64,000 bases of DNA from a bacterium UBP11_UBA4055 (GTDB taxonomy: Bacteria > UBA4055): the NCBI GenBank assembly GCA_002382735.1, contig DFZN01000071.1, positions 55,542 through 119,541 of the forward strand. Reading direction: 5' to 3'. Below are positions 26,244 to 46,410 of this stretch, one piece after another. Each line of letters opens with the position of its first letter. The first letter of the stretch is position 1. The notes beneath the pieces are model-generated. The model had not been told where the DNA came from. It did not search any database and saw nothing but the letters and a program-made list of their open reading frames with translations. The position numbers were made by a program, and so were the translations under genes.

Positions 26244-26251
26244 GATGAAAA

Positions 26252-26527
26252 TTGGTACAGGAAAATGAAATAATAACTTTTTTACTTTTTGCGCTCGTAG
26301 TGATCTTTTATTTTATCAACAGGCAGAAGCTTTCGGGATTCCCTGGAATAAAGTATTTTCTGATCTCGATAGTTTTCCTGTTGATAAGCAGTATTCTGAC
26401 GATAATAGAAGGCTTTTTCTTTGAAGAGATCATCAACACAGCAGAACATATAACACGACTCGTCTCCACAGTAATGCTTTTTGTTTGGGCTTATTCTTTA
26501 AGAGCAAAAAAAGGAAGTGCGAAATGA
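26252..26527 (+). CDS. small 3-TM membrane ORF (TTG start) overlapping the next kinase gene by 4 nt; possibly a detached N-terminal membrane module
   Basis: Hydrophobic helices are FLLFALVVIFYF, YFLISIVFLLISSILTII and LVSTVMLFVWAY. There is no in-frame ATG. It ends ATGA, overlapping the kinase start. Confidence 0.35.
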   Translation: MVQENEIITFLLFALVVIFYFINRQKLSGFPGIKYFLISIVFLLISSILTIIEGFFFEEIINTAEHITRLVSTVMLFVWAYSLRAKKGSAK

Positions 26528-30239: not shown

Positions 30240-30679
30240 GATCAAAATTCATTCTGCTGGTAGAGGATGACCAGAACGATGTAGAGCTTACTTTAAGAGC
30301 TCTCAAGCACGGGTACGACGGGAATATCACAGTAGTAAATGACGGAGCCGAGGGACTTGATTTTCTTTTCCGAAAAGGAAAATACGCAGACAGGGGGACT
30401 GAAGATCCGGGTTTTATTATTCTGGACAAGAAGATGCCCAAAATGGACGGTATTGAATTACTCATTGCCGTAAAAAAAGACGAAGTGTTAAAGAATATTC
30501 CCGTAATAATGTTCAGCTCGTCTAATTACGAAAAGGACATTTCGGACTCCTACAAAGCCGGCGTGAACGCTTACATTGTAAAACCTATAAATATTGATGA
30601 ATATTATAAAGCAGTCAGAGAGATCGGGCACTTTTGGGGTGAGTTGAACGAAGCACCTTCAATGCAAAACCGTCCTTGA
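30236..30679 (+). CDS. single-domain response regulator (CheY-like receiver only)
   Basis: ILLVEDDQND…FIILDKKMPKMDG…PVIMFSSS…K carries the receiver DD / D / T-S / K positions. Confidence 0.85.
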   Translation: MRSKFILLVEDDQNDVELTLRALKHGYDGNITVVNDGAEGLDFLFRKGKYADRGTEDPGFIILDKKMPKMDGIELLIAVKKDEVLKNIPVIMFSSSNYEKDISDSYKAGVNAYIVKPINIDEYYKAVREIGHFWGELNEAPSMQNRP

Positions 30680-30755
30680 GATAAACGGTTAGACAAAAAA
30701 ATGGTAATTGCCGGTTGGCATTGAACAAGACAGTCCAAATATAACAGGCTTAATA

Positions 30756-32243
30756 ATGGAAAAGATAATAATACTTATACTTGAAGATAACGAAAACGAT
30801 ATCGACCTTATCAGGTATGAACTTGAAAAGATCAGTTCTGAAACAGTATTTCTGATAACGAGAAACAAGAATGAATACATCAATTCGTTGACAAACAATG
30901 AACCGGATATAATACTTTCCGATTATAATCTTCCTGACATTGACGGTGAAGAAGTGCTGTCCTTGTTAAGAGAAAGAAATTCCGACACTCCTTTCATTCT
31001 TGTCTCAGGCACTATCGGTGAAGAAAAAGCTGTCGAGCTTATGCGTAACGGTGCTAATGATTTTATTGTTAAAAATAATCTTAAGAAACTTATCCCGACA
31101 ATTGAAAGGGAAATAAACGCATATAAGAGCAGAAAGAAGGCGAAAGAAGATCATGCCGAACTTATTAAGCTTAAAGCGGCTGTGAATCAAAGTCCTACAA
31201 TAATAGTCATGACCGATATTAAAGGGAATGCTGAATATGTAAATCCGCGTTTTACCGAGGTAACTGGTTATACTCTCGATGAAGTAAAAAACAAAAATCC
31301 GAGAATTTTAACATCAGGTGAAATGACCGATGAAGAGTATTCAGAAATGTGGAATACTATAACCGAAGGCAATATTTGGAAAAGTGAATTTCTGAACCGA
31401 AAAAAGAACGGGAAGCTTTATTGGGAAGGAGCTACCGTAGGCCCGGTATTTGACGAAAACAAAAGGATCACAAACTTTCTGAAACTGTCTCAGGATATAA
31501 CAGATAAAAAACAACTCATAAAAGAATTGCTGAAAGAAAAAGAAGCACTTGTTGCATCGAACAATGAACTCGAACAGTTCGCCTATATCACTTCACACGA
31601 CCTGCAGGAACCCCTGAGGATGGTTTCCAGTTTTACCGACCTGTTAATGAAAAAATATTCAGATAAACTAAATGAAGAAGCAAGAAGTTATATGAATTTC
31701 GCGATAAACGGCGCAAAGAGAATGCAGATGCAAATTCAGGGGCTGCTGACTTATTCAAGAGTGTCAACAAGATCTAATCCGTTTGAGAAAATATCATTAA
31801 ATGAAGTTCTCAAAGAAGCTTTAATGAACATTTCGGCATCGGTAAAAGAATCCGGCGCACAGATCGAAAGTGCTGATCTTCCTGTTGTTCTGGGGGACAA
31901 GTATCTGCTTCTATCGGTTTTCCAGAACCTTATTGGCAATGCCGTTAAATTCAGAAAGGACGGAATTGTACCGAAGATCAATATCCTTGCGACAGATACG
32001 AGAATTTCCGATAAAATCGAAGTGTCAATATCTGATAATGGAATCGGTATCCCGGAGAAAGATATTGATAAAATATTCTTCATTTTTCAGAGACTTCATT
32101 CGCAGGATAAATATCAGGGAACAGGCATTGGTTTGGCAGTTGTTAAAAAAATAATCGAAAAACACGGAGGAGAGATACATGTTGAATCTGTATTGAATGA
32201 AGGAACAAAATTCATTTTTTCACTAATAAAAGGCTCGCTATGA
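30756..32243 (+). CDS. hybrid receiver-PAS-histidine kinase
   Basis: REC is ILILEDNEND…IILSDYNLPDIDG…K. PAS is at about aa 150-260. HisKA is ITSHDLQEPLRMV. HATPase is IGNAVKF…GTGIGLAVVKKI. The start was moved to MEKIIIL (ATG at 30756). Confidence 0.85.
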   Translation: MEKIIILILEDNENDIDLIRYELEKISSETVFLITRNKNEYINSLTNNEPDIILSDYNLPDIDGEEVLSLLRERNSDTPFILVSGTIGEEKAVELMRNGANDFIVKNNLKKLIPTIEREINAYKSRKKAKEDHAELIKLKAAVNQSPTIIVMTDIKGNAEYVNPRFTEVTGYTLDEVKNKNPRILTSGEMTDEEYSEMWNTITEGNIWKSEFLNRKKNGKLYWEGATVGPVFDENKRITNFLKLSQDITDKKQLIKELLKEKEALVASNNELEQFAYITSHDLQEPLRMVSSFTDLLMKKYSDKLNEEARSYMNFAINGAKRMQMQIQGLLTYSRVSTRSNPFEKISLNEVLKEALMNISASVKESGAQIESADLPVVLGDKYLLLSVFQNLIGNAVKFRKDGIVPKINILATDTRISDKIEVSISDNGIGIPEKDIDKIFFIFQRLHSQDKYQGTGIGLAVVKKIIEKHGGEIHVESVLNEGTKFIFSLIKGSL

Positions 32244-32644
32244 AAGATCGATCGGGAAACAATATAATACTTGTCGAAGACAATGAGGGAGATGTAGTTC
32301 TTGCGGGAGAAGCGTTAAAATTTATCGGATCGAACTCAAATATAATACATATTAATGACGGAGAAAGCCTTTTCGAACACCTTAGCGACCGTAAAAATGA
32401 TACACCCGATGTAATAATTCTTGATCTTAATCTTCCGGGAATGAACGGAACTGAAATACTAAAAATTCTAAAAAAAAATCCCGAAACTGAGAACATACCG
32501 GTTATTATATTATCAACATCCAATAACCAGAATGACATTGATAAATGCAGTGAATTGAAAGCAGATAAATATATCACAAAACCGATCGATCTGAACGAAT
32601 TCTTTGAAGTATTCAGGGATATCGACAGCTGGATTAAACATTGA
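32240..32644 (+). CDS. single-domain response regulator
   Basis: ILVEDNEGD…VIILDLNLPGMNG…PVIILSTS…K. Confidence 0.85.
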   Translation: MKDRSGNNIILVEDNEGDVVLAGEALKFIGSNSNIIHINDGESLFEHLSDRKNDTPDVIILDLNLPGMNGTEILKILKKNPETENIPVIILSTSNNQNDIDKCSELKADKYITKPIDLNEFFEVFRDIDSWIKH

Positions 32645-32669
32645 ATTGCTGATAAATTAAGGATAAATA

Positions 32670-34955
32670 ATGGAAAGAGAAAAACTGAAAATAGCTGTAG
32701 TTGAGGATAACGAAGGTGATGCAGTATTGATAAAAGAAATGCTTACTTTCGGGGATGTCGAGATCACACATTTCAAAGATATAGAAAGCGCGCTGGAAGA
32801 TTTTGAGTTCAGCCGTTACGATGTCGCGGTGGTAGATCTCGGCCTGCCCGGATGTGTCGGCTCAGAAGCACCGATGATGATCATTAATGAAAATCCCACT
32901 TTACCGGTCATAGCTTTAACCGGAAGCGATGATATAAGAGTGATACAGAAAGTTCTGAGCGTAGGCGCACAAGATTATCTTATAAAGGGAAAATTCGACA
33001 GAGACACGCTGATCAGATCAATACGATATTCGATCGAAAGAAAAAAAGTTCACGATAATCTTTATGCTCAAAAACAATTTTCAGAAAATATTATTAATAC
33101 CGCAGGCGCGATAATAATGGTGCTGGATGGATCAGGCAGGATCACAAGAATAAACGAATATTTTAGAGATGTCACAGGATTTAGAACCGAAGACGCAAAA
33201 AACAGAGTTTTTGCAAGTTCTTTTGTTTCTCAAGGCTATATTGATAAAACTGAGGATGCACTTAGAAGGTCATTTACCGAAGATTTTGACAGAAGATTTG
33301 TGAACGCTATTCTAAAAAAAGGAGGCGGGTCGGTCATTGTCGAATGGCATTTTTCTCAAATGAAGAACAATGATAACGCTATACTGGGTCTGTTATGCGT
33401 AGGTATTGATATTACTGAGAGGGTAGAAGCGGAAGATCATCTCAAAAGAAGTGAAGAGCTTTTAAAAAGAACTCAATCTATCGCCAATGTCGGGAGCTGG
33501 ATATTTGAAAGCAAAACATCGGAACTTGTATGGTCGGATGAGGTTTACAAGATATTCGGGATCGATAAGAGGAGAATAAAACCCAGTTATGAAATTCTGG
33601 CGAATTCAATACCGGGAGATGAGCGAGCTGCTTTTGAAAGCGAATTCAAGTCGGCAGTAAATGAGGGGAAGCCTTTTGAAATAATTCACAGTATCAAAAG
33701 GAAAGACGGAACCCTCAGAACTGTCCATCAGAAAGCTGAGCATGAAAAGGACAGCAAAGGCAATGTTGTAAGGATTCTTGGGATGATTCATGATATTACG
33801 GATCAGAAAGAACTGGAAGAGCAGCTCAGACAATCCCAGAAAATGGAAGCTATAGGGCTTCTAGCAGGCGGTATCGCTCACGATTTCAATAATCTTCTTA
33901 TGGTGATATTATGCAACTGTGATCTCATGCTTGCCGACATGAAGAAAAACGATCCCCATACCGACGACATAATAGAGATAAAGAAAAGCGGGCAGAGAGC
34001 CGCAGAACTCACTAAACAGCTTCTTGCTTTCAGCAGGAAACAGGTCTTAAAACCCCAAATCCTTGACCTGAACATGATAATAGGCGATCTTGAGAAGATG
34101 ATCAGGAGACTGGTAGGAGAAAAAATAGATATTGTAACAAAAATGAGACCGAATATCGATATGGTTAAAGCCGACAGGGGACAGGTAGATCAGATAATCA
34201 TGAATCTGGTAGTGAACGCCAGAGACGCTATGCCTAAGGGTGGTAAAATAATTATTGAAACTATGAATGTAGCCCTTGATGATAACTATATCAAGAAATA
34301 CTCTGACATTGAACCCGGGAACTATGTCATGATGGCAGTTACAGACACCGGGTCGGGAATGAATAAAGAAACTGTTGATAAGATATTTGAACCGTTTTTT
34401 ACAACAAAAGGTATAGGGAAGGGTACAGGACTGGGGCTGTCAACTGTATATGGTATCGTAAGACAGAGCGGAGGTTATATTTACTGTTACAGCGAACCGG
34501 GAAAAGGAACTGCTTTCAAGATATATCTGCCTGTTGCGGATGAAGATATTATTTCTGATAAAGATAAGAAGGAAATGAATGACCTCAGGTCACACGGTGG
34601 AACAATTGTTGTTATTGATGATGAAAAAGAGATAAGAGAAGTTATAACCCGTATGCTTGAACAGGAAGGTTACGAGGTGCTGACAGCAGATAAATACGAA
34701 GATGTTTTGAATTATTTCGAGACTCGGAAAATTGATCTTTTGATCACTGATGTAATAATGCCAGAAATAAACGGTGACGAGATCGGCGAGATGATCCTCG
34801 AGAAATACCCCGGGTCAAAGATAATATTCATGTCGGGATATACAGAGAGCACAATTATAGATTTCAGTCTGCTCGATAAAAACAAAATCTATCTCCAGAA
34901 ACCCTTTTCGAGACAATCTCTTGTTCAGAGCGTTAACGAAATACTCATCAGTTAA
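32670..34955 (+). CDS. hybrid sensor kinase with domain order REC, PAS, PAS, HisKA, HATPase_c, C-terminal REC
   Basis: The N-terminal REC is VVEDNEGD…VAVVDLGLPG. HisKA is IAHDFNNLL. HATPase is LVVNARDAM…GTGLGLSTVYGI. The C-terminal REC is IVVIDDEKE…LLITDVIMPEING. Confidence 0.85.
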   Translation: MEREKLKIAVVEDNEGDAVLIKEMLTFGDVEITHFKDIESALEDFEFSRYDVAVVDLGLPGCVGSEAPMMIINENPTLPVIALTGSDDIRVIQKVLSVGAQDYLIKGKFDRDTLIRSIRYSIERKKVHDNLYAQKQFSENIINTAGAIIMVLDGSGRITRINEYFRDVTGFRTEDAKNRVFASSFVSQGYIDKTEDALRRSFTEDFDRRFVNAILKKGGGSVIVEWHFSQMKNNDNAILGLLCVGIDITERVEAEDHLKRSEELLKRTQSIANVGSWIFESKTSELVWSDEVYKIFGIDKRRIKPSYEILANSIPGDERAAFESEFKSAVNEGKPFEIIHSIKRKDGTLRTVHQKAEHEKDSKGNVVRILGMIHDITDQKELEEQLRQSQKMEAIGLLAGGIAHDFNNLLMVILCNCDLMLADMKKNDPHTDDIIEIKKSGQRAAELTKQLLAFSRKQVLKPQILDLNMIIGDLEKMIRRLVGEKIDIVTKMRPNIDMVKADRGQVDQIIMNLVVNARDAMPKGGKIIIETMNVALDDNYIKKYSDIEPGNYVMMAVTDTGSGMNKETVDKIFEPFFTTKGIGKGTGLGLSTVYGIVRQSGGYIYCYSEPGKGTAFKIYLPVADEDIISDKDKKEMNDLRSHGGTIVVIDDEKEIREVITRMLEQEGYEVLTADKYEDVLNYFETRKIDLLITDVIMPEINGDEIGEMILEKYPGSKIIFMSGYTESTIIDFSLLDKNKIYLQKPFSRQSLVQSVNEILIS

Positions 34956-36847
34956 TACTGCCAAGTTATCTCGTCAGTATATAGCATAAATTCCTGAAGA
35001 TATGTGACGATCAGTTTTCCGTTGTAAAAAGTATATTCGGCCTTTCCGAAAGGACCCATTTTCATGCCGTTAATATTCAAATAAACACCGTCACTGTTTT
35101 GATACCTGAATATAAATATCCTGCTGTCCGGTGAAAAGGACGGAAAGTCCGCATATTCATACGGTCCGAAGGTCTCGTCGCAAATCTGAACATAGTAATG
35201 AGTATCAGAAAAGTGGATGAAGCCGTATTTCTTTTTGTCGTTGCTGAAGATCGGAATATAGATCTGAAGATTCTTATTTCTTGATAAATACTTTCTTCCG
35301 TTTATCTGTAAATTATCTATATCGGACTGTTTATCTCTGTACTTAAAGGCGAAAAGCGACTCGTCAGGTAAAAATCTCCATTCCGAGATACTTTCGTAAG
35401 GTCCGAATAATGTATCATTGAGATTTATGAACCACGAATTGTTCCTTTTAAAAATAATAGCTTCAATTCCTATATAATTCGTCTGATAATCAATTATCTC
35501 GGCATCATCCTCAATAATCTCTCCGTTGAAGGAAATATAATTCTGGAGTTTGGAGAACAAATGTCCGGTCTTCTGTTTTTTTGAGAAACTATAAATATAA
35601 CTGCTCCCATTAAGGATCAAATTCGAAGCAGAATCGTACATTCCGTGAAGATTGTTCGAAATGTTCACAAAATATTTAGCGTTCTTCATAAAAATAAAAC
35701 CAAAGGACGAAGCTGAATCCGTGATCTCGACATCTGAAACAGTTATATATGGGCCAAAAATTTCGCCGTTTATATTGATATAGTAATTGTCATATTGTTT
35801 CTGATATACAAAACAATAGTTTTCTCCGCCGGAGCTGATCTTCATACCGGAAATGCTTTTATACGGACCATATTCATATTCACCGGTCACAACATAATAC
35901 TGACCGTCCTTCATATATGAAAAAATATAACTGTCACCTGTTCTACTAAGACGGTGATCAGTTACATTTGAAAAGAGACCTATGTCTTTAACAATCACAT
36001 GATACGAAGTTTCTTTTTTTGACATTTGGAATGATGCTTCCGTTCTTAATACAGAGCTCACGAGAATAAAATTCTTGTTCACCTTTTCGACTACATATTT
36101 ATCGAATCCGCTTAGGACACTGTCGTTGATCCGGCAAAAATCAGTTTTATCCTTTGTAAAAAGGAATGTATAGTGACCGTACTCTTTATAGTAATGAAGA
36201 TCTGAAGCCGATTCGAAAGGTCCGAAAACACTGTCGTTTATTTTTACAAAATATTCGCCCTCATTTTTTTTGAAAATGTATGCCATAAAACTGCTTGGGT
36301 AGTCCATAATAAAATCTGACAGATCGTCATAAGGCTCGGAAATCACTTCGTTAACCCTTACATATTTCTTTGAACCTGACCTGTAACATAATGCGAACGA
36401 GGTACCGTCGGGCGAAAATTCTACATTATAGATCTTTCTGAAACTTCCGAATTTATTGTTGTTTACCAACAGAAATGCGTCACCTAGAGTTTCGTACCAC
36501 AAATAATAAGTAATGTTGTCATTAAGCCCGAAATCTTTAATTTTATAAAATGGTCCCAATATCCTTCCGTTTATGATGACCGAATCCTGATTTTCATCTT
36601 TTATGAGGCCAAGCTTTTTTGAGAATGTTGAGGATTTGAAAGCCACTATTTTACCGTTCTTTCTGAATATGATCTTTTCAATAGAATCGAATCCGCCGTA
36701 TATTTTATCTTTATTCTGCGCAAAATATTTACCCTGTGTTCTAAAAACGAACAGGAAATTGTTCCCCTCGTTGGATATATACAGAGAAGCGTTCTCGAAT
36801 TCTTTTCCCGATGAGTATTCAGATATTCTGAAAAGGTTTATGCCCAT
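34952..36847 (-). CDS. tandem-repeat protein with about 11 repeats of ~50 aa, each containing an [IV]N[GD]xxFGP[YF] core; no signal peptide; function unknown
   Basis: Repeats are read directly, for example INGEIFGPY, INDSVFGPF, LNDTLFGPYE, ICDETFGPYE, INGMKMGPFG and VTGEYEYGPYKSI. Confidence 0.6.
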   Translation of the reverse strand: MGINLFRISEYSSGKEFENASLYISNEGNNFLFVFRTQGKYFAQNKDKIYGGFDSIEKIIFRKNGKIVAFKSSTFSKKLGLIKDENQDSVIINGRILGPFYKIKDFGLNDNITYYLWYETLGDAFLLVNNNKFGSFRKIYNVEFSPDGTSFALCYRSGSKKYVRVNEVISEPYDDLSDFIMDYPSSFMAYIFKKNEGEYFVKINDSVFGPFESASDLHYYKEYGHYTFLFTKDKTDFCRINDSVLSGFDKYVVEKVNKNFILVSSVLRTEASFQMSKKETSYHVIVKDIGLFSNVTDHRLSRTGDSYIFSYMKDGQYYVVTGEYEYGPYKSISGMKISSGGENYCFVYQKQYDNYYININGEIFGPYITVSDVEITDSASSFGFIFMKNAKYFVNISNNLHGMYDSASNLILNGSSYIYSFSKKQKTGHLFSKLQNYISFNGEIIEDDAEIIDYQTNYIGIEAIIFKRNNSWFINLNDTLFGPYESISEWRFLPDESLFAFKYRDKQSDIDNLQINGRKYLSRNKNLQIYIPIFSNDKKKYGFIHFSDTHYYVQICDETFGPYEYADFPSFSPDSRIFIFRYQNSDGVYLNINGMKMGPFGKAEYTFYNGKLIVTYLQEFMLYTDEITWQY

Positions 36848-36853
36848 ATGATA

Positions 36854-38641
36854 TTAATCCCTGATTAGTTCGTAACTGAGAGTGAACCTGATCACGGTAC
36901 CTTTACTCTTACCTTCAGAGTCTGCCCAAATTCTTCCGTTGTGGAGTTCAATGACTTTTCTGCAGAAAGCAAGTCCGGCACCCGATCTGAGGCTGTTATC
37001 TTTATCCGATTTAAAACCGGGAAAAAATATCCGCTCCAGATCTTCATTAGCTATGCCCTTGCCGTCATCTGCAACGAAAAAAGAGTTATCTTCATAGCCA
37101 ATGGAAATTTGTCTGCCGCCGTAAATGACTGCGTTAGATACCAGTTGATTAAAGAGTAGTTTAATATTTTCTTTATCCGCAAATATGTCCGGGATCTTAT
37201 CTCTGTTCACTAATTCGATCACCGCATTATATTTTTCGATCAAAATTTTATTGTCGGAAATGACCTGATCGATTATTTTTGAGGTATTAACCATCTCGAA
37301 GGGATTCTTCACGGCGTTCAATTTTGATATATCGTAAAAATTCCTGAAAAGTTCGTTCATTCTCTTGATATTTGAGATTATTTTTTCAAGGTAGATACTG
37401 CTTTCATTCCCTGCTTCAGACAATGATGAAGTCTTCAACAGCAGTTTGGAAAATCCTTCCACTGCTATGATAGGAGACTGGAGGTCATGAGTAGTCATGT
37501 ATATCAGTTTCTTCATGTCCTCGGTTGTTCTCTTTACTTCATTCTCGATCTTCTTTTTTTCGGTTATATCCTGCAGTATTCCTGATATCTTTCGAAGGTT
37601 GCCATTACCGTGAATGTTTTTTGCCTTAATTCTGAAATATCTGGTCTTGTCATTAAATTCTGAACTCCTGTCCATGTATGTAATCTCATTGTCGATTTCA
37701 TCCTTTTGAGAATGCATACTCTTAAGCTCAATATAGAACTGCTCGAATTTTAGATTTTCACGAATATCTTCGAGTTTAGATTTTTTTTCGTAAGGAATGT
37801 TGAGTATCCTGAAGAATTCTTTTGAAGCCGTAATCTCATCGGTTTCGGGTAAATAAGTCCAGCTTCCCATGCTGGCGATCTCCTGAGCCTGAGAGAGAAG
37901 TTCTTTGCTTTCCTTTAACGCAGCGTCCTTCTTGATAAGGTCCGTAATGTCAACCATAGAAGTGAGTTCCTCGGTACCTGCCATCAGGATTACTGTCACG
38001 ATCACATGCCTAAGATCGCCGTTTTTCCTTCTGAATTTCATGGTATATTCTCTCGGTGCTTTCTCAGGGTCGTATTTTCTCAGCCGGTCAAATTCGAAAA
38101 CTCTTTTGATATCGTCTTCATAAACTACTTTTCCCCAGTGCATCTTTCCGATTATCTCCTCCCGGTCATATCCTGAAAGCTCTACAAATTTCCTGTTACA
38201 GTCGCTGATGAGTTCATTATCTCCTACTATCAGTATCGCAGTTCCGTTGTTTTCAAAAAGAGATCTGTATTTAGCTTCTTTTTCCATTATCTCCCTGGAA
38301 TTTTTGGTTACATCCTCCAGATAATTCAGTTTTTTAAAATCCGAGATCCATTTACGCATAAGAAAATGGATCGTGACAGCCATTGCCAGGACTGAGAATA
38401 TTATTATTCCGGACATGAGGTAATAATGACCGATAGTATCTTTGTAGGCGTTAAAAAGAGCTTCATATTCCTCTACATATTTCTCGGCCAGATTATATTT
38501 TGTAACGATAGCGTCATTTAGGAAAATATCTTTATTACGCCATGTAAAATAACCCACAACGGCTATTATCTCAGCGGTAAATATACCGAGATACAGGAAG
38601 TAGTTTTTGAACAGAGAATTAAATTTGTCTTTTTTCGGCAT
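36854..38641 (-). CDS. membrane-anchored PAS/PAS sensor histidine kinase
   Basis: It has two N-terminal TM helices and PAS domains. HisKA is MTTHDLQSPI. HATPase_c motifs are SNAVIYG, DDGKGIA and GAGLAFCRKV. Confidence 0.85.
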   Translation of the reverse strand: MPKKDKFNSLFKNYFLYLGIFTAEIIAVVGYFTWRNKDIFLNDAIVTKYNLAEKYVEEYEALFNAYKDTIGHYYLMSGIIIFSVLAMAVTIHFLMRKWISDFKKLNYLEDVTKNSREIMEKEAKYRSLFENNGTAILIVGDNELISDCNRKFVELSGYDREEIIGKMHWGKVVYEDDIKRVFEFDRLRKYDPEKAPREYTMKFRRKNGDLRHVIVTVILMAGTEELTSMVDITDLIKKDAALKESKELLSQAQEIASMGSWTYLPETDEITASKEFFRILNIPYEKKSKLEDIRENLKFEQFYIELKSMHSQKDEIDNEITYMDRSSEFNDKTRYFRIKAKNIHGNGNLRKISGILQDITEKKKIENEVKRTTEDMKKLIYMTTHDLQSPIIAVEGFSKLLLKTSSLSEAGNESSIYLEKIISNIKRMNELFRNFYDISKLNAVKNPFEMVNTSKIIDQVISDNKILIEKYNAVIELVNRDKIPDIFADKENIKLLFNQLVSNAVIYGGRQISIGYEDNSFFVADDGKGIANEDLERIFFPGFKSDKDNSLRSGAGLAFCRKVIELHNGRIWADSEGKSKGTVIRFTLSYELIRD

Positions 38642-38645
38642 TTAG

Positions 38646-39827
38646 TTAAACTCCCTGCGCGTTACCGTCAACCGGAATAGAAACCGAGAATGTCGATCCG
38701 CCGCCGAATTTACTTTCTACGGATATATCGCCTTTGTGCGCTTCGATTATCTTTTTAGCGATCGGAAGGCTGATACCCTGCCTGTTCTCCTCTTCACCTG
38801 TATTGAACTTAAAAATATCCTTAAGATCTTCTTCAATTATACCGATCCCGTGGTCTTTGATCAGGAATTTTATGATTCCGTTTTCGTACTTCATGCCGAT
38901 TTCAATACTTGTTGAGTTTTCAGAATATTTAATTGCGTTCTCGATCATTCTTGACAGCGCGATCAAGATCTTGTTTGTGTCCATCATTACTTCAACAGGA
39001 AGTATGTTGTCATGATAAGCTTCTATCCTGATCTGTTTTTTTTCAGCGGAAGCTGTATTACGAGAAATCAATTCATTAAAGAACTCAAGCGTTCTTACTT
39101 TTGAATATTTCAGCTTCAGATTTCCGGAAGTGATGTCTGCCACATTCATTATCTTTGCGTATATCTTGGCAAGCTCTTCTGCTTTTCCGAAAATTTTTTC
39201 GGTTACCGCAAGCTTTTCGCTGTCAGTTCCCGGATCAAACATTTCTGAGAGTTCAGTTGTCAGATCGGCAATTTTCTGGGTAGAATTCCTGAAATCGTTC
39301 ATCGCGATCTCTATGAACTGGTTTTTGATATCATTGAGTTCCTCAAGTTCAGCTTTCTGATCTTTTATAACTTCATACAGCCTGTTCAGTTCGTTGTTCG
39401 CTGAAGTTAATTCTTCGGTTGAGCTCTTGAGTTCGTCATGCATCATTTTAAAATTTAGGACATTTTCTATCCTTAGTACGAATTCTTCGGGGATTACAGG
39501 CTTGTTGACGAACTCTATTATTCCGCATTCGAGCGCTTCTTTCCTCATATCGTCGTCCACATATCCTGTCAGCATAATAGTCGGGATGTCTTTCGTAATA
39601 CCCTTACTCTTCATCTCCTTTAACATTTCACTGCCGCTCATACCGGGCATCTTACCGTCAGTTACGATCAGGTCGAATTCCATGATTGATGCTTTTTGGA
39701 TACCTTCTTTCCCACTCGATGCGAAAACAAGTTCCCAGTCGCTTCTTCTCGCCTGGAAGATCCTCCTTATCCCGTTCAGCACAGGCACTTCGTCGTCAAC
39801 GAAAAGTATCCTGAAATTTTTTTCCAT
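38646..39827 (-). CDS. hybrid receiver + coiled-coil + histidine-kinase-like transmitter
   Basis: REC is ILFVDDEVPV…LIVTDGKMPGMSG…TIMLTG…K. The C-terminus has HATPase_c motifs (IENAIKYS, DHGIGI, GISLPIAKKI). Confidence 0.8.
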   Translation of the reverse strand: MEKNFRILFVDDEVPVLNGIRRIFQARRSDWELVFASSGKEGIQKASIMEFDLIVTDGKMPGMSGSEMLKEMKSKGITKDIPTIMLTGYVDDDMRKEALECGIIEFVNKPVIPEEFVLRIENVLNFKMMHDELKSSTEELTSANNELNRLYEVIKDQKAELEELNDIKNQFIEIAMNDFRNSTQKIADLTTELSEMFDPGTDSEKLAVTEKIFGKAEELAKIYAKIMNVADITSGNLKLKYSKVRTLEFFNELISRNTASAEKKQIRIEAYHDNILPVEVMMDTNKILIALSRMIENAIKYSENSTSIEIGMKYENGIIKFLIKDHGIGIIEEDLKDIFKFNTGEEENRQGISLPIAKKIIEAHKGDISVESKFGGGSTFSVSIPVDGNAQGV

Positions 39828-39845
39828 AAATTTCTCCGCTATTAA

Positions 39846-41411
39846 TTATTCATTATTTTCAATCGGCAGTTTGATCGTAAAAACTGTTCCCTTGCCATGT
39901 TCTGAATCGACTTTTATACCGCCATTATGCTTATTTACGATTATGTCGTAACTCAAAGCCAGCCCCTGACCCGTGCCTTTCCCGATCTGTTTGGTCGTAA
40001 AAAAAGGCTGGAATATTTTTTCTTTAAGTTCGGCAGGTATCCCGGCCCCGTTATCCTCTATTGTTATGTAAATAAATGCTTCATCGAAAGATGTCGATAT
40101 TTTTATCAGGCCTTTTTCTTCGCCTTTTCTTTCCGATATAGCGTCGCACGAATTCGTTATCATATTAAGAATAACCTGGTTTATGTCTCCGATATGGCAG
40201 GTGATCTCGGGAAGATTTTCGGCGGGGCAGGTCTCAACATCAGCAATATACTTCCAGACATTTTTAGTTATGGTCACAGTCGAAGTTATTGCGTCATTTA
40301 TGTCAGCTTTCTGCATTGTTTTAAGCCCAGGATGCGAGAATGTTTTCATGGCGGTCACGATCTTTCTCACTATCCGGATGCCGTTCATGCTTTCCTCTAG
40401 TGCTTCAGGTATCTCGTTCATCAGATATTCCAGGTCAGTGCCGACAGCTATCTTATTTTCTGAGCCGCTTTCAGCTGATTTTTTGATATTGGAATAGAAA
40501 TCAGATATTTTTTTGAACGAATCTTTGATGAACAGGGTGTTGTCGCTAATATACTGAAGAGGTGTATTTATCTCGTGCGCTATACCTGCGGCCAGAGTTC
40601 CGATCCCTTCCATTTTTTGAGCGTGTCTCAATTGATTTTCAATTCTTATCATATCTGAAATATCCCTTTTAAGCGCGACGAAATTAATTATGTTCCCGCT
40701 TTCGTCAAATACTGGGGACACGGATGCATCCTCTTCATAAACATCCCCGTTCTTCTTTTTATTGATAAAATGACCCTTCCATGGTTTTCCTGCAAGAATC
40801 GTTTTCCAGAGATCATCGTAAAAAGCCCTGTCATGCTGACCGCTCTTTAAAACTGATACCGGCATTCCCAAAACCTCTCCGGCCGAATATCCCGTTGTTC
40901 TTTCGAAAGCAGGATTAACAAATTCGATTATACCTTTGATATCCGTTATTACAATTGTTTCTGAGGAATGATAAATGGCAGTACTGAGCTTGTTCTGTCG
41001 TTCTGCTATGGCATTTCTGTCTTTTCTCAGGTTGCTTAATTCAAGGAACCTATCGGTTTTTTCCGGAAGAGATTCGAACATATCTGCGGATTTATTTACA
41101 TAATCGAGAACACCGGATTTTATAAGAGTTACTACGGTTTCCTGATCAACAAAGCTCTCAAGGACTATGACAGGTACATTTTTGTATATGTAGGGATCCT
41201 TTAACAGATCTAAAGGACTTCCGTCGTCAAGGTAGAGATTGCTAATGATAATATCGGAACTCTCGGCATATTTCCGTGCAATTTCGATGTCAGGTACGAT
41301 CGTCAGCCTGTAACGGTTACCGTATCTGAGAAATACGCTGTTTATGAGTATTCCGTGATCCTCATTTTTTTCTATAAGCAGTACTTTTACCGGCATGTCA
41401 GCTCTGTCCAA
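39846..41411 (-). CDS. PAS sensor histidine kinase with an N-terminal pseudo-receiver (phospho-acceptor Asp replaced by Asn)
   Basis: The receiver-like region is VLLIEKNED…[16 protein letters not shown]…VPVIVLES…K, with Asn where the Asp normally sits. HisKA is [12 protein letters not shown]. HATPase is ITNSCDAI…[12 protein letters not shown]. Confidence 0.8.
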
Positions 41412-41487: not shown

Positions 41488-42663
41488 TTATTCTTCTCGC
41501 ATGAAAGGAATACCGTCCTTGAGAAGATCGAAGAACTGGCCGGTGGGGCAGAGGTAAACGCACCACGGATTTTTAATGAAAACCGAAGCAATAAATATTA
41601 TTATGCTGCCTGTAACGGTTATTATTGATGCGGTTGAGAATATGAATATCGAAAAAGGCTCAATGATCGTCAGGTCAATTCTGATCGAAGCGGAAACGGC
41701 TATAAGCAGGGATATGAAAATTAGAAGTCTGAGCCGCCTGAAGAAAATTATGATCTTAGCACTTGGAATGACCTTTTTAACCTGTATTTTTGCAAGTATG
41801 GTCTGAACTCCGCCGAAGGGGCAGATATAATAACAGTAATAATGTCTATTGAAGAAAAGCGGAACAAGAACCGAAAGAATCAGGAGAACGATCGTCGTTA
41901 ATGAAGTTAAAAAGCTTATGCCGTTCAACGAAAGACTTTCAAGAAAATAGATCGAAATAAATTTGCCTGATATGACACCAAAAAATATAATAGATAGAAG
42001 CTGTATGAAAATTCTGAACTTATTTATTTTCTTTATGAATATTCCCAGTAATGATATAAATAGAATAAAATATAAAACTGCTTCGTATGGAGATTTCAAT
42101 AGCGATATTTCTGTTTTTGGGGTCGATTTTGCATACGCTGTTTTCCCGGTAAATATACCCACTCTTTTACTGATAATTTTTCCGACTGCTTCGCTTGTAT
42201 ATGTTGCTCCTGACACGGCATCTATTTCCATTTCTTCAAGTTCCTCAAGAGTTTTGCCTTTCCATGAATTGAAATATCCGATGTTTTCAAGCCCGGAAAT
42301 CCAGGCCGGCGTTTCTCTGTGATTTACGACCAAGATCCCGGTGATCTTTTCATTTTCATCCGCAAGGACCGCAAGGCTTAAATTCCCTCCGTACCCTATA
42401 ATATCGTCGCTGAAAGGTGATGTAAGAATGAATTTGCCTGCGACATTTCCCTTCCCGTCATAAATTTTTGACCACGAGTTAAGATAATTCTTCTCTTCGA
42501 CAGATGCGGCTTCAGGTATGATCCTTTTGAATTTCTCTGCAAGATCATATCTGCCAAAATCAAAATCCTCTTTTATTTCGCCTTTGGAAAGTATGAAAAC
42601 CAAAACGAACACTGCAATTACTGGGAGCTTTAAAAGATATCTGATCCGGGTACTTTTCGTCAT
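41488..42663 (-). CDS. polytopic membrane redox protein with an FMN-binding domain and two CxxC(P) 4Fe-4S-type motifs (NosR/NapH-like)
   Basis: The FMN_bind signature is AVSGATYTSEAV. The iron-sulfur motifs are YYCYYICPFGG and WCVYLCPTGQ. It has an N-terminal TM and about 6 further TM helices. Confidence 0.7.
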   Translation of the reverse strand: MTKSTRIRYLLKLPVIAVFVLVFILSKGEIKEDFDFGRYDLAEKFKRIIPEAASVEEKNYLNSWSKIYDGKGNVAGKFILTSPFSDDIIGYGGNLSLAVLADENEKITGILVVNHRETPAWISGLENIGYFNSWKGKTLEELEEMEIDAVSGATYTSEAVGKIISKRVGIFTGKTAYAKSTPKTEISLLKSPYEAVLYFILFISLLGIFIKKINKFRIFIQLLSIIFFGVISGKFISIYFLESLSLNGISFLTSLTTIVLLILSVLVPLFFNRHYYCYYICPFGGVQTILAKIQVKKVIPSAKIIIFFRRLRLLIFISLLIAVSASIRIDLTIIEPFSIFIFSTASIITVTGSIIIFIASVFIKNPWCVYLCPTGQFFDLLKDGIPFMREE

Positions 42664-42850: not shown

Positions 42851-43111
42851 TTATTCGTTACTTATCCTGTAATATTCTGGTATGTCTGGTTTTCTTTGTT
42901 GTCCGCATCTGACCATAATGATGTTTTTAAGATAGATCGCATAAGGCTGTCTGGCTGAAAGGTCGTAGCATATAAGGAAGCCCCCGTCAAGTTTTATCGG
43001 AAATACTTCCAGTATGAGATGTTCTCTTATTATTTCAGAAAAATAATGATCGCAAATAAGCGTGTTCCCCGAACTTATCGCTTCATATATCGCAGATCTC
43101 AATTTCCGCAT
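42851..43111 (-). CDS. hypothetical small protein
   Basis: An 86-aa ORF that overlaps the upstream ORF by 29 nt. It could be the 3' part of a frameshifted single gene. Confidence 0.35.
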   Translation of the reverse strand: MRKLRSAIYEAISSGNTLICDHYFSEIIREHLILEVFPIKLDGGFLICYDLSARQPYAIYLKNIIMVRCGQQRKPDIPEYYRISNE

Positions 43112-43418
43112 TTATACATTTCCTTGTTGTTGTTTTCGCACTTAGCGTTATTTCATTATTGAACCACCTGACCGTCATGGTATTGACAAAATCTCCAATG
43201 TCTGAAGGTACAGTAAAAGACACTACCTCACCTTCGGTGATCTCTCCGGGATCCTTTAGTAAGCTGATTCTGTCACCAACAGAAATCAGGGCGCATTTTT
43301 TCCCGTAGAGATAAAACCTTTTTAATATGTACCGGCTGTTTTTCCTGAAAATATCCGGGTTTTCTTTCGGGTCAAAAAAGACAGCCACGGCTCCGCAGCT
43401 GTCGTTAATGATGCTCAT
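43083..43418 (-). CDS. hypothetical protein (RxxxR…D/G-rich; weak PilZ-like resemblance)
   Basis: A 111-aa ORF with an FRKNSRY motif. The assignment is weak. Confidence 0.4.
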   Translation of the reverse strand: MSIINDSCGAVAVFFDPKENPDIFRKNSRYILKRFYLYGKKCALISVGDRISLLKDPGEITEGEVVSFTVPSDIGDFVNTMTVRWFNNEITLSAKTTTRKCINAEIEICDI

Positions 43419-43444: not shown

Positions 43445-43606
43445 TTATTTTTTGATTGGGGGCGGCGGAGGTATAGGGTCCACACCGTCACCTGTATAAA
43501 CCCATCCCGTTCCGATCCAAGTCCAGTCCGGATATATTTCATCAGCGTAAAGACCGGCAGTCAATGCCGTGAGAGCTAAGATCGCCGCGATAATAAGTTT
43601 CTTCAT
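43445..43606 (-). CDS. small secreted peptide precursor (53 aa; mature part about 32 aa, Trp/Gly-rich with a PPPPP tract)
   Basis: Hand translation gives MKKLIIAAILALTALTAGLYADEIYPDWTWIGTGWVYTGDGVDPIPPPPPIKK. An AAGGAGG RBS lies 8 nt upstream. It sits directly downstream of the TPR protein gene on the same strand and is absent from the track because it is under 60 aa. Confidence 0.5.
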   Translation of the reverse strand: MKKLIIAAILALTALTAGLYADEIYPDWTWIGTGWVYTGDGVDPIPPPPPIKK

Positions 43607-43781
43607 TCTTTGCCTCCTTTTTGTTGTTCGAAGGCAAGATACCTCTGTAAAACTCTCGTGTCAATCATACAGCATTTTTAGGGCGGAAAAAATGCCGTTG
43701 TGGCCCTTCAACTTTTTATTGTCATATTGTGTAAAGTATTGATATATTATAAAATGCGGAATAAAAAAAATGGTTCGAAAT

Positions 43782-45632
43782 TCAGTTCGACAAACCCTTC
43801 ATTATACCTTTTATATCAACAATGTCGTTTTCCGCTTCGGGTGATCCAATAGCTTTAAGATGCCTGAGCGCTTCTTTAAAATGTTTGGCGGCTTTGGAAA
43901 CATTGTTCATTTTCGCACAGTTTATGCCCGCAAGTTTATGGCAGTGAGCTTTAAGAACGGTGTCCGGTATGTTCTCCGACTCAATTATTTGAAAGCATTT
44001 GTTAAGGTGTGAGTTGGATTTTCTGTACCTTGAGGTTTCGCTGTATATGACCGCGAGAGTATTTTCAATGTAGGCCGGGTAGAGTCTGATTGAGTTCAGG
44101 GCGCATATCTCGGTAAGCCTGTTCAGAAATCTTACCGCGCCAATGTACTTTTTCTTTTCTGTCATGATCTTGGCGAGATAGATCATGTTAACGATATGCT
44201 CCTCAAGACTCTCACTCTTTTCATTAAAAATGACCGCCGATCTTCTGAAATATTTTTCAGCCTTGTCTTTCTCTCCCTTTTTGTAAAGATATATCGCGAA
44301 ACTGATAAGCGAATTGTAGTAATACGAGTCCTTGCCGGTCTTTTTTGAAAGCTGTTTTATGCGTCTAAGGTATTCATCCGCCGCTGAATGTTCGATACTG
44401 CCTGAATACGATGAAGTTGAAAATATCTGGGAAATGCATTTTGATTCGCCTATCAGATCTTTATTCTTTCTTGTATATTCAAGCTGCATATCCAGGCATT
44501 CGAGAGCTTTATTATATTTTCTGTCCCTGATATATATTTCAGATTTTACTCCGTAGAAGTAACCAAGCTCTTTATCATTAGTTCTCCTGAAAGCTTCCCT
44601 GATGCATTCATTCACCTTGACGAGTGCGTTTTTCAGGTCGTTCTTAACGATTTTTTTTCTTATCTGAGCATCATAATGTATATATTTTTTTTCCTCATTT
44701 TCGGTTTTATTAAGAAACCACAGGGTGCGGGTAAAACAACGGTCTGCTTCCTGCAGGTTGTTAGAATATGCGGAGATCATTCCCAGATAATAATATAGTT
44801 CTCCCAGTTCATCATTGTAATGAGCATCTGTCATTATTCCTATTCCGTCAAGAACGATATCTCTACACTTTTCATACTGTTCGAGATGAAAAAATATTTT
44901 CGCTTTTTTCATGATGATGCCCGCACTGAATTTTTCAGAGCCATGAAGCTCGGAAGCGGCGTTCTGGAGCCTGTTGTAAAGCATTACGGCTCTCTCGAAA
45001 TCCAGTTCGTCCTCATATCTCTCAACATCTTTCGCGGTTTCGTATAAAGTGCTCAGGAGAATATCGTTATCCTCCTTTGAAAGGCTGTAATCTTTCCAGA
45101 AATCAGTAAAATCCCTCATCTTTTCAATATCTTTTATGAATGAATCGACAAAAACCGGAGGTATGACGGGACTGTCAGACAAAAAGGCGCCTTCATTTTT
45201 CGCATAACCTCCGCTCAAAAGAAGTTCTTTATACAGCTTTTTTAATATTTCCCTGTGGTCTATACCGTTCTTCATCGGCGAATTGTTCCTGCCGGAGAAA
45301 TGAACTGGCTCCATTTTTACTGAGGTGTGATCAAGTTTTCTGCTGTCTGAAATTTTAATACAGGCAGGATCATTATTTTTAGGTCTGAGATTGGAAAGAA
45401 TATAACTCGTGAATATTTCGATGCCTGTCTGGCTCTTATCCAGACTGTAGCCTAAGAATCTGTGATGCGATGAAGTATCCTCAACGATTATCTTATAGAC
45501 AGATATTGTTTTGCCTTCAGTTTCTGTCCTCGAAAACAGTTCAATAAACGCGCTTAAGCCTTTAAGTTCCCTGAAAGTATCCAGTTTATTCATGTTCGCT
45601 TTAAAATGATCGAATCTCTTTGTTCTCATCAA
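43782..45632 (-). CDS. TPR-repeat protein (616 aa)
   Basis: The C-terminal 400 aa show multiple 34-residue helical repeats with W/L-G-Y-A-F-A-P-like positions (…AKHFKEALRHLKAIG…, …YYYLGMISAYSNNLQEAD…). Confidence 0.7.
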   Translation of the reverse strand: MMRTKRFDHFKANMNKLDTFRELKGLSAFIELFSRTETEGKTISVYKIIVEDTSSHHRFLGYSLDKSQTGIEIFTSYILSNLRPKNNDPACIKISDSRKLDHTSVKMEPVHFSGRNNSPMKNGIDHREILKKLYKELLLSGGYAKNEGAFLSDSPVIPPVFVDSFIKDIEKMRDFTDFWKDYSLSKEDNDILLSTLYETAKDVERYEDELDFERAVMLYNRLQNAASELHGSEKFSAGIIMKKAKIFFHLEQYEKCRDIVLDGIGIMTDAHYNDELGELYYYLGMISAYSNNLQEADRCFTRTLWFLNKTENEEKKYIHYDAQIRKKIVKNDLKNALVKVNECIREAFRRTNDKELGYFYGVKSEIYIRDRKYNKALECLDMQLEYTRKNKDLIGESKCISQIFSTSSYSGSIEHSAADEYLRRIKQLSKKTGKDSYYYNSLISFAIYLYKKGEKDKAEKYFRRSAVIFNEKSESLEEHIVNMIYLAKIMTEKKKYIGAVRFLNRLTEICALNSIRLYPAYIENTLAVIYSETSRYRKSNSHLNKCFQIIESENIPDTVLKAHCHKLAGINCAKMNNVSKAAKHFKEALRHLKAIGSPEAENDIVDIKGIMKGLSN

Positions 45633-45695
45633 ACCTGCCTTTGTACGGATTTTAGTGACTCATCTTCATCAAACTTTGCATCTGCTTAATATAAG

Positions 45696-45735
45696 AAAAA
45701 AAAAACAGAAAAACCGCAATCGTTTTTCTGTTTTA
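45696..45735 (-). terminator. rho-independent terminator downstream of phoU (end of the pst-phoU operon)
   Basis: The minus-strand read is AAAACAGAAAAACGATTGCGGTTTTTCTGTTTTTTTTTT: a 10-bp stem, a 7-nt loop and a 10-nt U-tract. Confidence 0.65.
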
Positions 45736-45756
45736 TGTTCCTGTATAAAATATTTA

Positions 45757-46410
45757 TTATCCCTGATGCCTTACGATCGTTCCGTTTATCATATAGACCA
45801 CATCCTCGGCTATATTTGTAGCATGATCGCCAATTCTTTCAAGAGATCTTGATATGGTCAGATATTGTGAGAGGAGCTCAAAATTATCCGGCTGTTTTTC
45901 CAGAGCTTTCTTCACTTTACCAAAAACCGACTCATGAAGCCTGTCAACTTCATCATCAGCTTCAATGACCATTTCTGCTTTCTTCATATCCAAGTCTATC
46001 ATCGAGTCTATGCTGTTCTTTACCATTAAAAGAGCTTTTTCGCACATATCGGTAAAATCGAACGAATCGTCCTTCCTGTTCAGGCTGATGATCTTTATAC
46101 ATCTCTCGGAAATGTTCACTGCGAGATCGCCTATCCTTTCAAGGTCGGAATTGATCTTAAGCATAGAGATTATAAGCCTTAAGTCGATGGCTACAGGCTG
46201 ATAAAGGGCGAGAAGTTTTAAACAGTCCTCCTCTATCTCTATCTCCGTCAGATCTATCTGCCTGTCTTTCTCTATTACTTTCTCAGCGAGTTTGACATCT
46301 CCTTCGTAAACTGATCTGACCGCGTCTCTGACATCTTCTTCGACCACGGCACAGAGTTCGTAAAATTTCTTTTTGAGTTTTGTTAATTCGTTCTGCAGGT
46401 ATTTTGACAT
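45757..46410 (-). CDS. phoU: phosphate-specific transport system accessory protein PhoU
   Basis: A 217-aa protein with the two-repeat PhoU architecture and conserved E/DxxxD metal motifs (…DLAVNISE…, …GDHATNIAEDV…). It lies immediately downstream of pstB. Confidence 0.9.
   Translation of the reverse strand: MSKYLQNELTKLKKKFYELCAVVEEDVRDAVRSVYEGDVKLAEKVIEKDRQIDLTEIEIEEDCLKLLALYQPVAIDLRLIISMLKINSDLERIGDLAVNISERCIKIISLNRKDDSFDFTDMCEKALLMVKNSIDSMIDLDMKKAEMVIEADDEVDRLHESVFGKVKKALEKQPDNFELLSQYLTISRSLERIGDHATNIAEDVVYMINGTIVRHQG

Follow-up and report, generated by a model that had tools for sequence, protein, structure and literature searches.

The repeat region of a TPR protein gene and the adjoining gene for a predicted secreted Trp/Pro-rich peptide form one exchangeable allelic block in Candidatus Delongbacteria

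The window analysed here, a stretch of 64,000 nucleotides (nt) from the uncultured bacterium UBP11_UBA4055 (contig DFZN01000071.1), carries a gene for a large tetratricopeptide repeat (TPR) protein followed by an unannotated open reading frame (ORF) of 53 codons. An initial annotation had read this pair as an RNPP-like arrangement, that is, as a TPR receptor gene beside the gene for its secreted signalling peptide. Coordinates are positions in the window, and the genes of the cassette all lie on the minus strand. The pair comprises the following elements (aa, amino acids).

43782..45629, minus strand: TPR protein gene, 615 aa from the ATG at 45629 (the ORF list instead starts it at TTG 45632, giving 616 aa)
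45075..45629, minus strand: N-terminal domain of the TPR protein, about residues 1-185, with family-specific conserved motifs in the alignment
43785..45074, minus strand: TPR array, about residues 186-615, roughly 11 helix pairs, the variable and exchangeable part of the gene
43607..43781, minus strand: TPR-peptide intergenic region of 175 nt, with a T-run after the TPR stop and a promoter-like site
43636..43664, minus strand: promoter-like site TTGACA-17-TATCTT, from a promoter scan and an alignment of eight loci
43613..43619, minus strand: ribosome-binding site AAGGAGG, 6 nt ahead of the peptide-gene ATG
43445..43606, minus strand: peptide precursor gene, 53 aa plus stop, MKKLIIAAILALTALTAGLYADEIYPDWTWIGTGWVYTGDGVDPIPPPPPIKK, from the ORF list, homologue searches and alignment
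43544..43606, minus strand: predicted Sec signal peptide, residues 1-21, MKKLIIAAILALTALTAGLYA, with predicted cleavage after Ala21
43448..43543, minus strand: predicted mature peptide, 32 aa, DEIYPDWTWIGTGWVYTGDGVDPIPPPPPIKK, from sequence features

The true start of the TPR gene is ATG 45629 and not TTG 45632, because its homologues are 615 aa long; full-length members of the family measure about 613-628 aa.

The 53-codon ORF is a real, conserved gene. Its position on the TPR strand behind a strong ribosome-binding site was confirmed, with a gap of 175 nt where the initial annotation had counted 176 bp. A gene of 53-58 aa is called at the same place downstream of TPR homologues 41-45% identical to that of the window, and the whole gene order (TPR, 53-58 aa, about 110 aa, about 85 aa) is repeated in these loci; the window's own third and fourth genes, p111 and p86, are described below. 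The translated peptides of related loci align over their whole length, and a ribosome-binding site of the GGAG type stands at the same place in the other peptide-bearing loci. Between the window and its relative L001, the ratio of non-synonymous to synonymous substitution rates (dN/dS) is 0.15 for the peptide gene (13 synonymous and 8 non-synonymous changes) and 0.12, 0.08 and 0.20 for neighbouring genes, so the ORF is under purifying selection and its ratio is not near 1. A word-index search with the peptide returned a single close relative at 87% identity. An exhaustive phmmer search of 1.84 billion representatives, for which the peptide, p111 and p86 of the window were joined into one query, returned 21 proteins, all of them members of the cassette families (15 peptides, 2 p111 and 4 p86). 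The peptide family, with propeptides of 53-66 aa, was found only in Candidatus Delongbacteria genomes and metagenome contigs.

The initial annotation had also proposed a signal peptide and a mature part of about 32 aa rich in Trp and Pro, and features shared throughout the family bear out this prediction. In all 22 distinct members the N-terminal end contains two basic residues, and a stretch of 13-18 residues is free of charge; position −1 is small (Ala in 20 of the 22, Gly in one and Cys in one), while position −3 is aliphatic. The peptide is thus predicted, from sequence, to be exported by the Sec pathway and cut after Ala21. The family layout consists of the signal peptide, the motif DWxWxGxxW and the motif DPxPPxPP, the mature peptide having an acidic start, the aromatic DWxWxGxxW motif, a Gly/Asp linker and the DPxPPxPP tail. 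In the alignment of 22 peptides, W30, W35 and P49 are invariant and A21, W28, D43, P44, P47, P48 and P50 nearly so, and the predicted mature parts are 32-37 aa long with a net charge of −2 to −8, 2-4 Trp and 5-11 Pro.

The peptide matched no model in Pfam, NCBIfam or PADLOC. A match of one relative (P0036) to NprX_fam, with an expectation value (E) of 0.0046 and below the cut-off, covers the signal peptide only and is meaningless. Two further readings of the peptide were rejected. W-x-W cores are found in darobactin-type products, which belong to the ribosomally synthesised and post-translationally modified peptides; here the leader is a Sec signal, and neither p111 nor p86 matches a radical-SAM or other enzyme family. 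A cationic Trp/Pro antimicrobial peptide was rejected because the mature peptides without exception carry a negative net charge (−2 to −8). Residues 28-39 (43490..43525, minus strand; W-x-W-x-G-x-G-W-x-Y-x-G) weakly match the blade motif W-C-W-D-G-N-G-W of the Ralstonia solanacearum fucose lectin, with E 5e-4 for an engineered triple repeat only and 0.07-0.5 for single chains; we regard this as a lead for sugar or aromatic stacking and not as a finding.

The peptide gene was found beside TPR homologues wherever a peptide gene remains, as the initial annotation had suggested should be checked. TPR-then-peptide order on one strand holds in every informative locus with a peptide gene, including distant relatives for which only the C-terminal end of the TPR protein lies on the contig. 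In three such relatives (P0032, P0027 and P0022, in loci L029, L018 and L017), whose peptides are about 50-55% identical, the peptide gene lies 130-210 nt downstream of the end of a TPR gene; these upstream gene ends are TPR-positive in Pfam and match the TPR family profile collinearly at about positions 480-614, with E of 3.7e-9, 8.8e-7 and 0.2, respectively. The genes 3' of the peptide vary in these three loci, one having a response regulator and another a secreted protein. TPR-peptide adjacency therefore outlasts the other neighbours. In a scan of one genome per species, the TPR family was found in three Candidatus Delongbacteria metagenome-assembled genomes (MAGs) only, the other loci being metagenome contigs. 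In locus L013, from a GTDB genome, the peptide gene is broken by masked bases (NN, L013:7975-7985), its readable C-terminal part being WISITTTDGIEPLPPPPPVKI, so that simple scans would score the gene as absent.

The region between the two genes is itself conserved. In the eight loci aligned, the TPR stop is followed by a run of T, and the block TATGATTGAC and, further downstream, TAnnTT(T)G are present in all of them; in the window, the TATGATTGAC block contains TTGACA, which is followed after 17 nt by TATCTT (43664..43636). The promoter-like site is also kept in the peptide-less locus L015, directly ahead of the p111 gene. Given this conservation, the peptide gene most likely begins its own transcript and, in the main clade, most likely heads an operon with the p111 and p86 genes. 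As for a regulatory RNA in the 175-nt gap, no Rfam match was obtained and the RNA fold was no better than those of shuffled sequences (z 0.48). Just past the peptide gene, at 43380..43403 (minus strand), a terminator-like hairpin of 10 pairs followed by TTTTTT lies within codons 6-16 of p111, where it encodes the most conserved p111 motif, SCGAVAVFF, and might curb transcription that reads on past the peptide gene. Its stem is largely kept in other loci, and the T-run is broken in several.

Comparison of a few pairs of related loci revealed one exchangeable allelic block, made up of the TPR array, the promoter and the peptide gene. Loci L026 and L007 have near-identical flanks: the upstream sequence is 99-100% identical at the nucleotide level, and the proportion of synonymous differences (pS) is 0.10 in p111, 0.00 in p86 and 0.01 in the NosR-like gene that follows. 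Between about TPR codon 110 and the last codon of the mature peptide, intergenic region included, the same two loci are as far apart as distant lineages, with pS of 0.74 and a proportion of non-synonymous differences (pN) of 0.27 in the TPR gene, and pS of 0.60 and pN of 0.23 in the mature peptide, which is 61% identical in amino acids. Between L026 and L027/L013, the backgrounds are diverged (the N-terminal part of the TPR gene is about 73% identical in nucleotides and p111 75% in amino acids, and the upstream sequences cannot be aligned), whereas the block is held in common, with TPR arrays 85-98% identical in nucleotides and identical peptides. Chimeric TPR genes point the same way: P0017 and P0018 are 84-98% identical over their first 200 or so residues and 38-62% thereafter, and P0011 and P0012 show the reverse.

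The edges of the block can be located. In L004, L005 and L010, RecG is 86-89% identical, while the TPR proteins, whose gene overlaps the recG stop, are just 45-48% identical; the sharp drop in identity comes some 150 nt past the TPR start in one pair and immediately ahead of it in another. L004 and L005 also have a right-hand boundary between the peptide and p111 genes, and in three independent comparisons this boundary falls within the 21-27 nt that separate the two. Synonymous sites are saturated within the block but have hardly changed beyond it, so the pattern reflects replacement by old, diverged alleles and not a rapid evolution of the proteins. Only a single allele was sampled in the clade to which the window belongs, and divergence there is even. 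By analogy with pherotype loci, which show the same pattern, the block supports a cognate TPR-peptide pair: in PlcR-PapR and Rap-Phr pherotypes, receptor part and peptide vary together between strains, as they do here.

Linkage without partnership could account for part of this pattern. The TPR gene might alone diversify, or be a hot spot of recombination, with the peptide gene hitch-hiking from less than 200 nt away and the TPR protein being a generic scaffold; a block over the 3' end of the TPR gene easily extends across an adjacent gene of 160 nt, in one pair the peptide identity matrix tracks p111 and p86 above the TPR protein, and one lineage retains the TPR gene without the peptide. We nevertheless consider this explanation very unlikely, as the right boundary repeatedly falls in the narrow peptide/p111 gap and adjacency survives where every other neighbour has changed.

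The structure of the TPR protein was compared with those of known peptide receptors. TPR families are the sole Pfam matches in this large protein, with scores of 61 bits for TPR_12 and 47 bits for TPR_2 that exceed the curated cut-offs, and NCBIfam yielded nothing beyond a weak similarity to the TPR portion of AfsR. The protein shows neither an evident signal peptide nor a membrane segment (maximum hydropathy over 19 residues, 1.11), so it is probably cytoplasmic. An AlphaFold2 (AF2) model built from 16 sequences has a predicted local distance difference test (pLDDT) score of 75 overall and above 90 in the solenoid, which consists of 22 helices spanning residues 185-614; about residues 1-185 are modelled at low confidence as three strands (at 25-62) and a few helices. 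Nothing in Pfam, NCBIfam or the PDB profile search matches this N-terminal region, in which neither a known fold nor a helix-turn-helix (HTH) can be recognised, and the low confidence of the model leaves room for a novel DNA-binding fold.

The initial annotation had proposed a search for similarity to Rap, NprR and PlcR and for an N-terminal HTH. The similarity proved to consist of generic TPR-level matches, and no HTH was detected by Pfam or NCBIfam. When the profile of the 16-member family was run against all PDB sequences, no RNPP protein appeared at E<=1, the matches being TONSOKU, Hop, LGN and kinesin light chains; the Foldseek top 50 likewise held no RNPP protein. In the structure comparison LGN/Pins was best, and LGN, Pins, APC subunits and designed TPRs scored as well as or above PlcR, Rap and NprR. 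The TPR domains of LGN/Pins and kinesin light chains belong to eukaryotic scaffolds with 13% sequence identity to the array, so that the fold and possibly the binding mode are alike and the function is not. Because these relatives of the array include LGN/Pins peptide complexes and KLC2 with a tryptophan-acidic cargo peptide, binding of a D-W-x-W...polyproline ligand would have chemical precedent.

A published signature of RRNPP systems specifies a propeptide of 10-100 aa with a Sec/signal peptidase I signal, a receptor of 250-500 aa, TPRs, and direct neighbourhood of the two genes (PMC10075063). The locus agrees with four of these five features (a small propeptide, a Sec tag as predicted from its sequence, a TPR receptor and adjacency) and departs from the fifth, its receptor being 615 aa long. 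None of the marks of homology was seen, namely sequence or profile similarity, an HTH or the three-helix bundle of Rap, or a TPR structure closer to RNPP proteins than to others. Of the RNPP-like arrangement as first proposed, the TPR/peptide gene order and a receptor-ligand-like coupling stand, and membership of the RNPP family does not. Descent from a true RNPP or RRNPP member transferred from Firmicutes is close to refuted: to the profile, Foldseek and structure-score results are added the missing HTH, the length of 615 aa, the unrelated N-terminal domain and the restriction of the family, in the genome scan, to Candidatus Delongbacteria.

Taken together, these observations lead us to favour, tentatively and at a confidence still short of probable, a cognate recognition pair of a new family, in which a cytoplasmic TPR protein with a specificity-bearing array is coupled to a small peptide made from its own promoter, in a manner like that of RRNPP systems and unrelated to them by descent. 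In this model the 53-aa precursor would be exported by Sec and cut after Ala21, yielding outside the cytoplasm an acidic peptide of about 32 aa, in which a Trp-rich motif resembling a hairpin precedes a polyproline tail. Whole or as a fragment, the peptide would return across the diderm envelope to the cytoplasm, where the concave groove of its own TPR allele might recognise it by direct binding, and recognition would couple the level or type of peptide to the activity of the N-terminal domain as output. Lineages would hold different matched array and peptide alleles, swapped as a unit by recombination. The more specific proposal that this is an independently evolved system of peptide self-recognition or quorum signalling in a diderm candidate phylum, with multiple pherotypes, the 32-aa peptide or a fragment as signal and a cytoplasmic TPR receptor of a new type, we consider rather unlikely.

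Several observations weigh against the recognition-pair model. No recognisable DNA-binding or other output domain was found in the TPR protein by Pfam, AF2 or NCBIfam. The host envelope appears to be diderm, since the window contains an AsmA-family gene and relatives encode proteins with type IX secretion system (T9SS) tails, and a peptide of about 3.5 kDa would then need further steps to leave the cell or to re-enter the cytoplasm. Conservation of the whole mature length, unlike pro-pheromones that yield a signal of 5-10 residues, suggests that the mature peptide acts intact, perhaps only in the envelope. At pS 0.18, the signal-peptide codons of L026 and L007 have diverged far less than their surroundings on both sides, so the L026/L007 block is itself a mosaic, and with the two genes adjacent, common recombination blocks could partly be simple linkage. 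Co-divergence is also not uniform: the peptide tree, in which L004 is closest to L005 (71%), tracks p111 and p86, while the TPR arrays differ from it, with identities of 45% for L004-L005 and 53% for L004-L007/L008. Finally, L015 and L023, one sequence in two assemblies, have no peptide gene although the TPR gene is apparently intact (its 5' end is off the contig) and p111 is kept. The L015 locus may be an orphan paralogue, because MAG UBA12480 has a second, peptide-bearing locus, L013. In the peptide-less sequence (L015:1725-1892, L023:1078-1276), the conserved promoter region leads straight into the p111 gene, p86 is missing, and a gene for a 1387-aa secreted protein comes next.

Alternatively, the peptide could be an envelope mini-protein that works as an intact chain of about 32 aa in the periplasm or at the outer membrane, where its Trp hairpin and proline tail might, for instance, attach to a glycan or to a protein of the envelope. 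In that case the mature peptide would never encounter the TPR protein, whose role would be to regulate the peptide operon or to handle the precursor ahead of export, and the polymorphism would reflect selection on an exposed component and its regulator. The diderm envelope and the conservation of the entire mature peptide, with a W-x-W-x-G-x-x-W motif weakly like the fucose lectin repeat, fit such a role, as does an operon with its own conserved promoter in which the TATGATTGAC block could be an operator; in the main clade the peptide would moreover be co-transcribed with a WYL protein, a fold typical of ligand-sensing regulators. Single chains, however, give no significant lectin match, no DNA-binding domain can be detected in the TPR protein, a 615-aa solenoid would be a costly chaperone for a 53-aa precursor, and it stays unexplained by this reading alone why the array and not the N-terminal domain travels with the mature peptide. 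We regard it as the main rival, although a doubtful one.

The favoured recognition pair can be set beside two kinds of known system. RRNPP systems (Rap, Rgg, NprR, PlcR, PrgX and AimR, of Firmicutes and their phages and plasmids) are alike in placing a TPR gene beside the gene for a Sec-tagged propeptide. The present locus differs from them in the lack of any sequence relationship, the generic structure of its TPRs, an N-terminal domain of about 185 aa distinct from both an HTH and the helix bundle of Rap, a host from a diderm candidate phylum, the conservation of the whole mature peptide of about 32 aa, and an operon that in the main clade contains two more small proteins. The comQXP locus of Bacillus and the agrBDC locus of Staphylococcus also combine the signal gene with the part of the receptor that recognises the ligand, in a block deeply diverged between close strains, bordered by conserved flanks and exchanged by recombination, and the TPR array and peptide likewise form one diverged, recombining block between conserved flanks. 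The comQXP and agrBDC receptors are membrane histidine kinases, and their peptides are modified by dedicated enzymes; here the partner would be a soluble protein with TPRs, and the locus shows no evident enzyme for such modification.

Signalling through genetically encoded peptides that are sensed by TPR receptors in the cytoplasm is regarded as a Firmicute speciality. The RRNPP-finding tool was applied to Firmicutes and viruses only (PMC10075063), and a literature search returned nothing relevant on stand-alone WYL/TPR systems or on RRNPP outside Firmicutes. The same two-gene logic, with pherotype-like exchange of alleles, is seen here in an uncultured diderm lineage with unrelated components. 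Should the array bind the peptide of its own allele, signalling of this design has more than one origin and is workable across two membranes. The L026-type and L007-type alleles would offer a compact natural pair with which to study the evolution of TPR-peptide specificity. Even with a peptide that acts in the envelope alone, three unannotated protein families are defined, an unannotated ORF of 53 codons is established as real, and a rare stand-alone WYL protein is added. The module, unannotated and confined to a small uncultured lineage, is best filed as a variant of the peptide-plus-TPR-partner design.

Downstream of the peptide gene, the cassette continues and gives way to a membrane-protein gene.

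43083..43418, minus strand: p111 gene, 111 aa, starting 26 nt past the peptide stop and conserved in seven aligned loci
42851..43111, minus strand: p86 gene, 86 aa, overlapping the end of the p111 gene by 29 nt; a stand-alone WYL domain
41488..42663, minus strand: NosR/RnfG/NapH-like membrane protein, with FMN_bind and two Fer4_5 stretches in Pfam

The p111 product is a cytoplasmic protein of unassigned family, whose N-terminal motif SCGAVAVFF(D)P..NP is conserved in the seven loci. It has no significant match in Pfam, NCBIfam, PADLOC or the PDB; weak matches to Gid8 and the Pml1 FHA domain (PDB profile, E 0.16-0.6) and to Csx16 (NCBIfam, E 0.1) were set aside as chance, and its single PADLOC match is to a restriction-enzyme model at E 0.016. 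p86 was not matched to WYL by sequence in Pfam, but it passes as a WYL domain by structure, having an Sm/SH3-like five-stranded barrel and an N-terminal helix that superpose on solved WYL domains, and its closest structural relatives include the defence-system regulators BrxR and CapW. It differs from the WYL-domain regulators PafBC, DriD, BrxR and CapW in being a WYL domain alone, without an HTH or a C-terminal extension.

The kinship of p86 with BrxR and CapW raises the possibility of a conflict module for phage defence or antagonism between strains, in which the array would sense an invader or the product of a competitor, the small peptide, membrane-targeted or exported, would be an effector or bacteriocin-like toxin, and the WYL protein and p111 would be regulators. 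Deeply diverged alleles swapped between near-identical strains are typical of conflict loci, and in three loci in which the cassette follows recG, an AbiEii gene lies just upstream. In PADLOC, however, none of the four proteins has a credible match (the TPR protein, the peptide and p86 have none at E<=1); the TPR protein contains no NTPase or nuclease domain; and the acidic peptide with its cleavable-type signal is unlike cationic pore formers. The peptide gene is also single-copy and under purifying selection. The cassette moreover keeps a fixed chromosomal position, beside the same NosR-like and histidine-kinase genes in most sampled loci, and does not sit in a variable island. A conflict module is thus quite unlikely, and we retain the recognition pair as the favoured reading.

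The surroundings of the cassette differ between lineages on its upstream side. In L004, L005, L008 and L010, the start of the TPR gene overlaps the recG stop by 1-4 nt, and three of these four recG-linked lineages are those in which the AbiEii gene immediately precedes recG. In the clade of the window (region compared, 45633..46410), phoU-pstBAC, assigned by Pfam, takes the place of recG, with a terminator-like hairpin at 45702..45734 (minus strand). An Rfam match to CsrC at 45689..45835 (minus strand), with 17 bits against a gathering score of 61 and E 0.029, lies over the 3' end of phoU and this terminator and is most likely chance.

On the downstream side the NosR-like gene stands 3' of the cassette in most loci; in L004, p86 and the NosR-like gene are separated by an inserted gene for a beta-helix protein of 1496 aa that carries a T9SS tail. 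After the latter, the window contains a long run of PAS, histidine-kinase and receiver genes (Pfam), unusually dense and on both strands, with at least nine PAS, HisKA, HATPase and receiver proteins in 24444..41411. The run includes three consecutive hybrid kinases on one strand, and its first three proteins are syntenic with the cassette in most related loci. Beyond it, also on the minus strand, lie the genes for a large radical-SAM protein (Radical_SAM_N2 and DUF2344; 18048..20570) and for the AsmA-family protein mentioned above (16441..18036).

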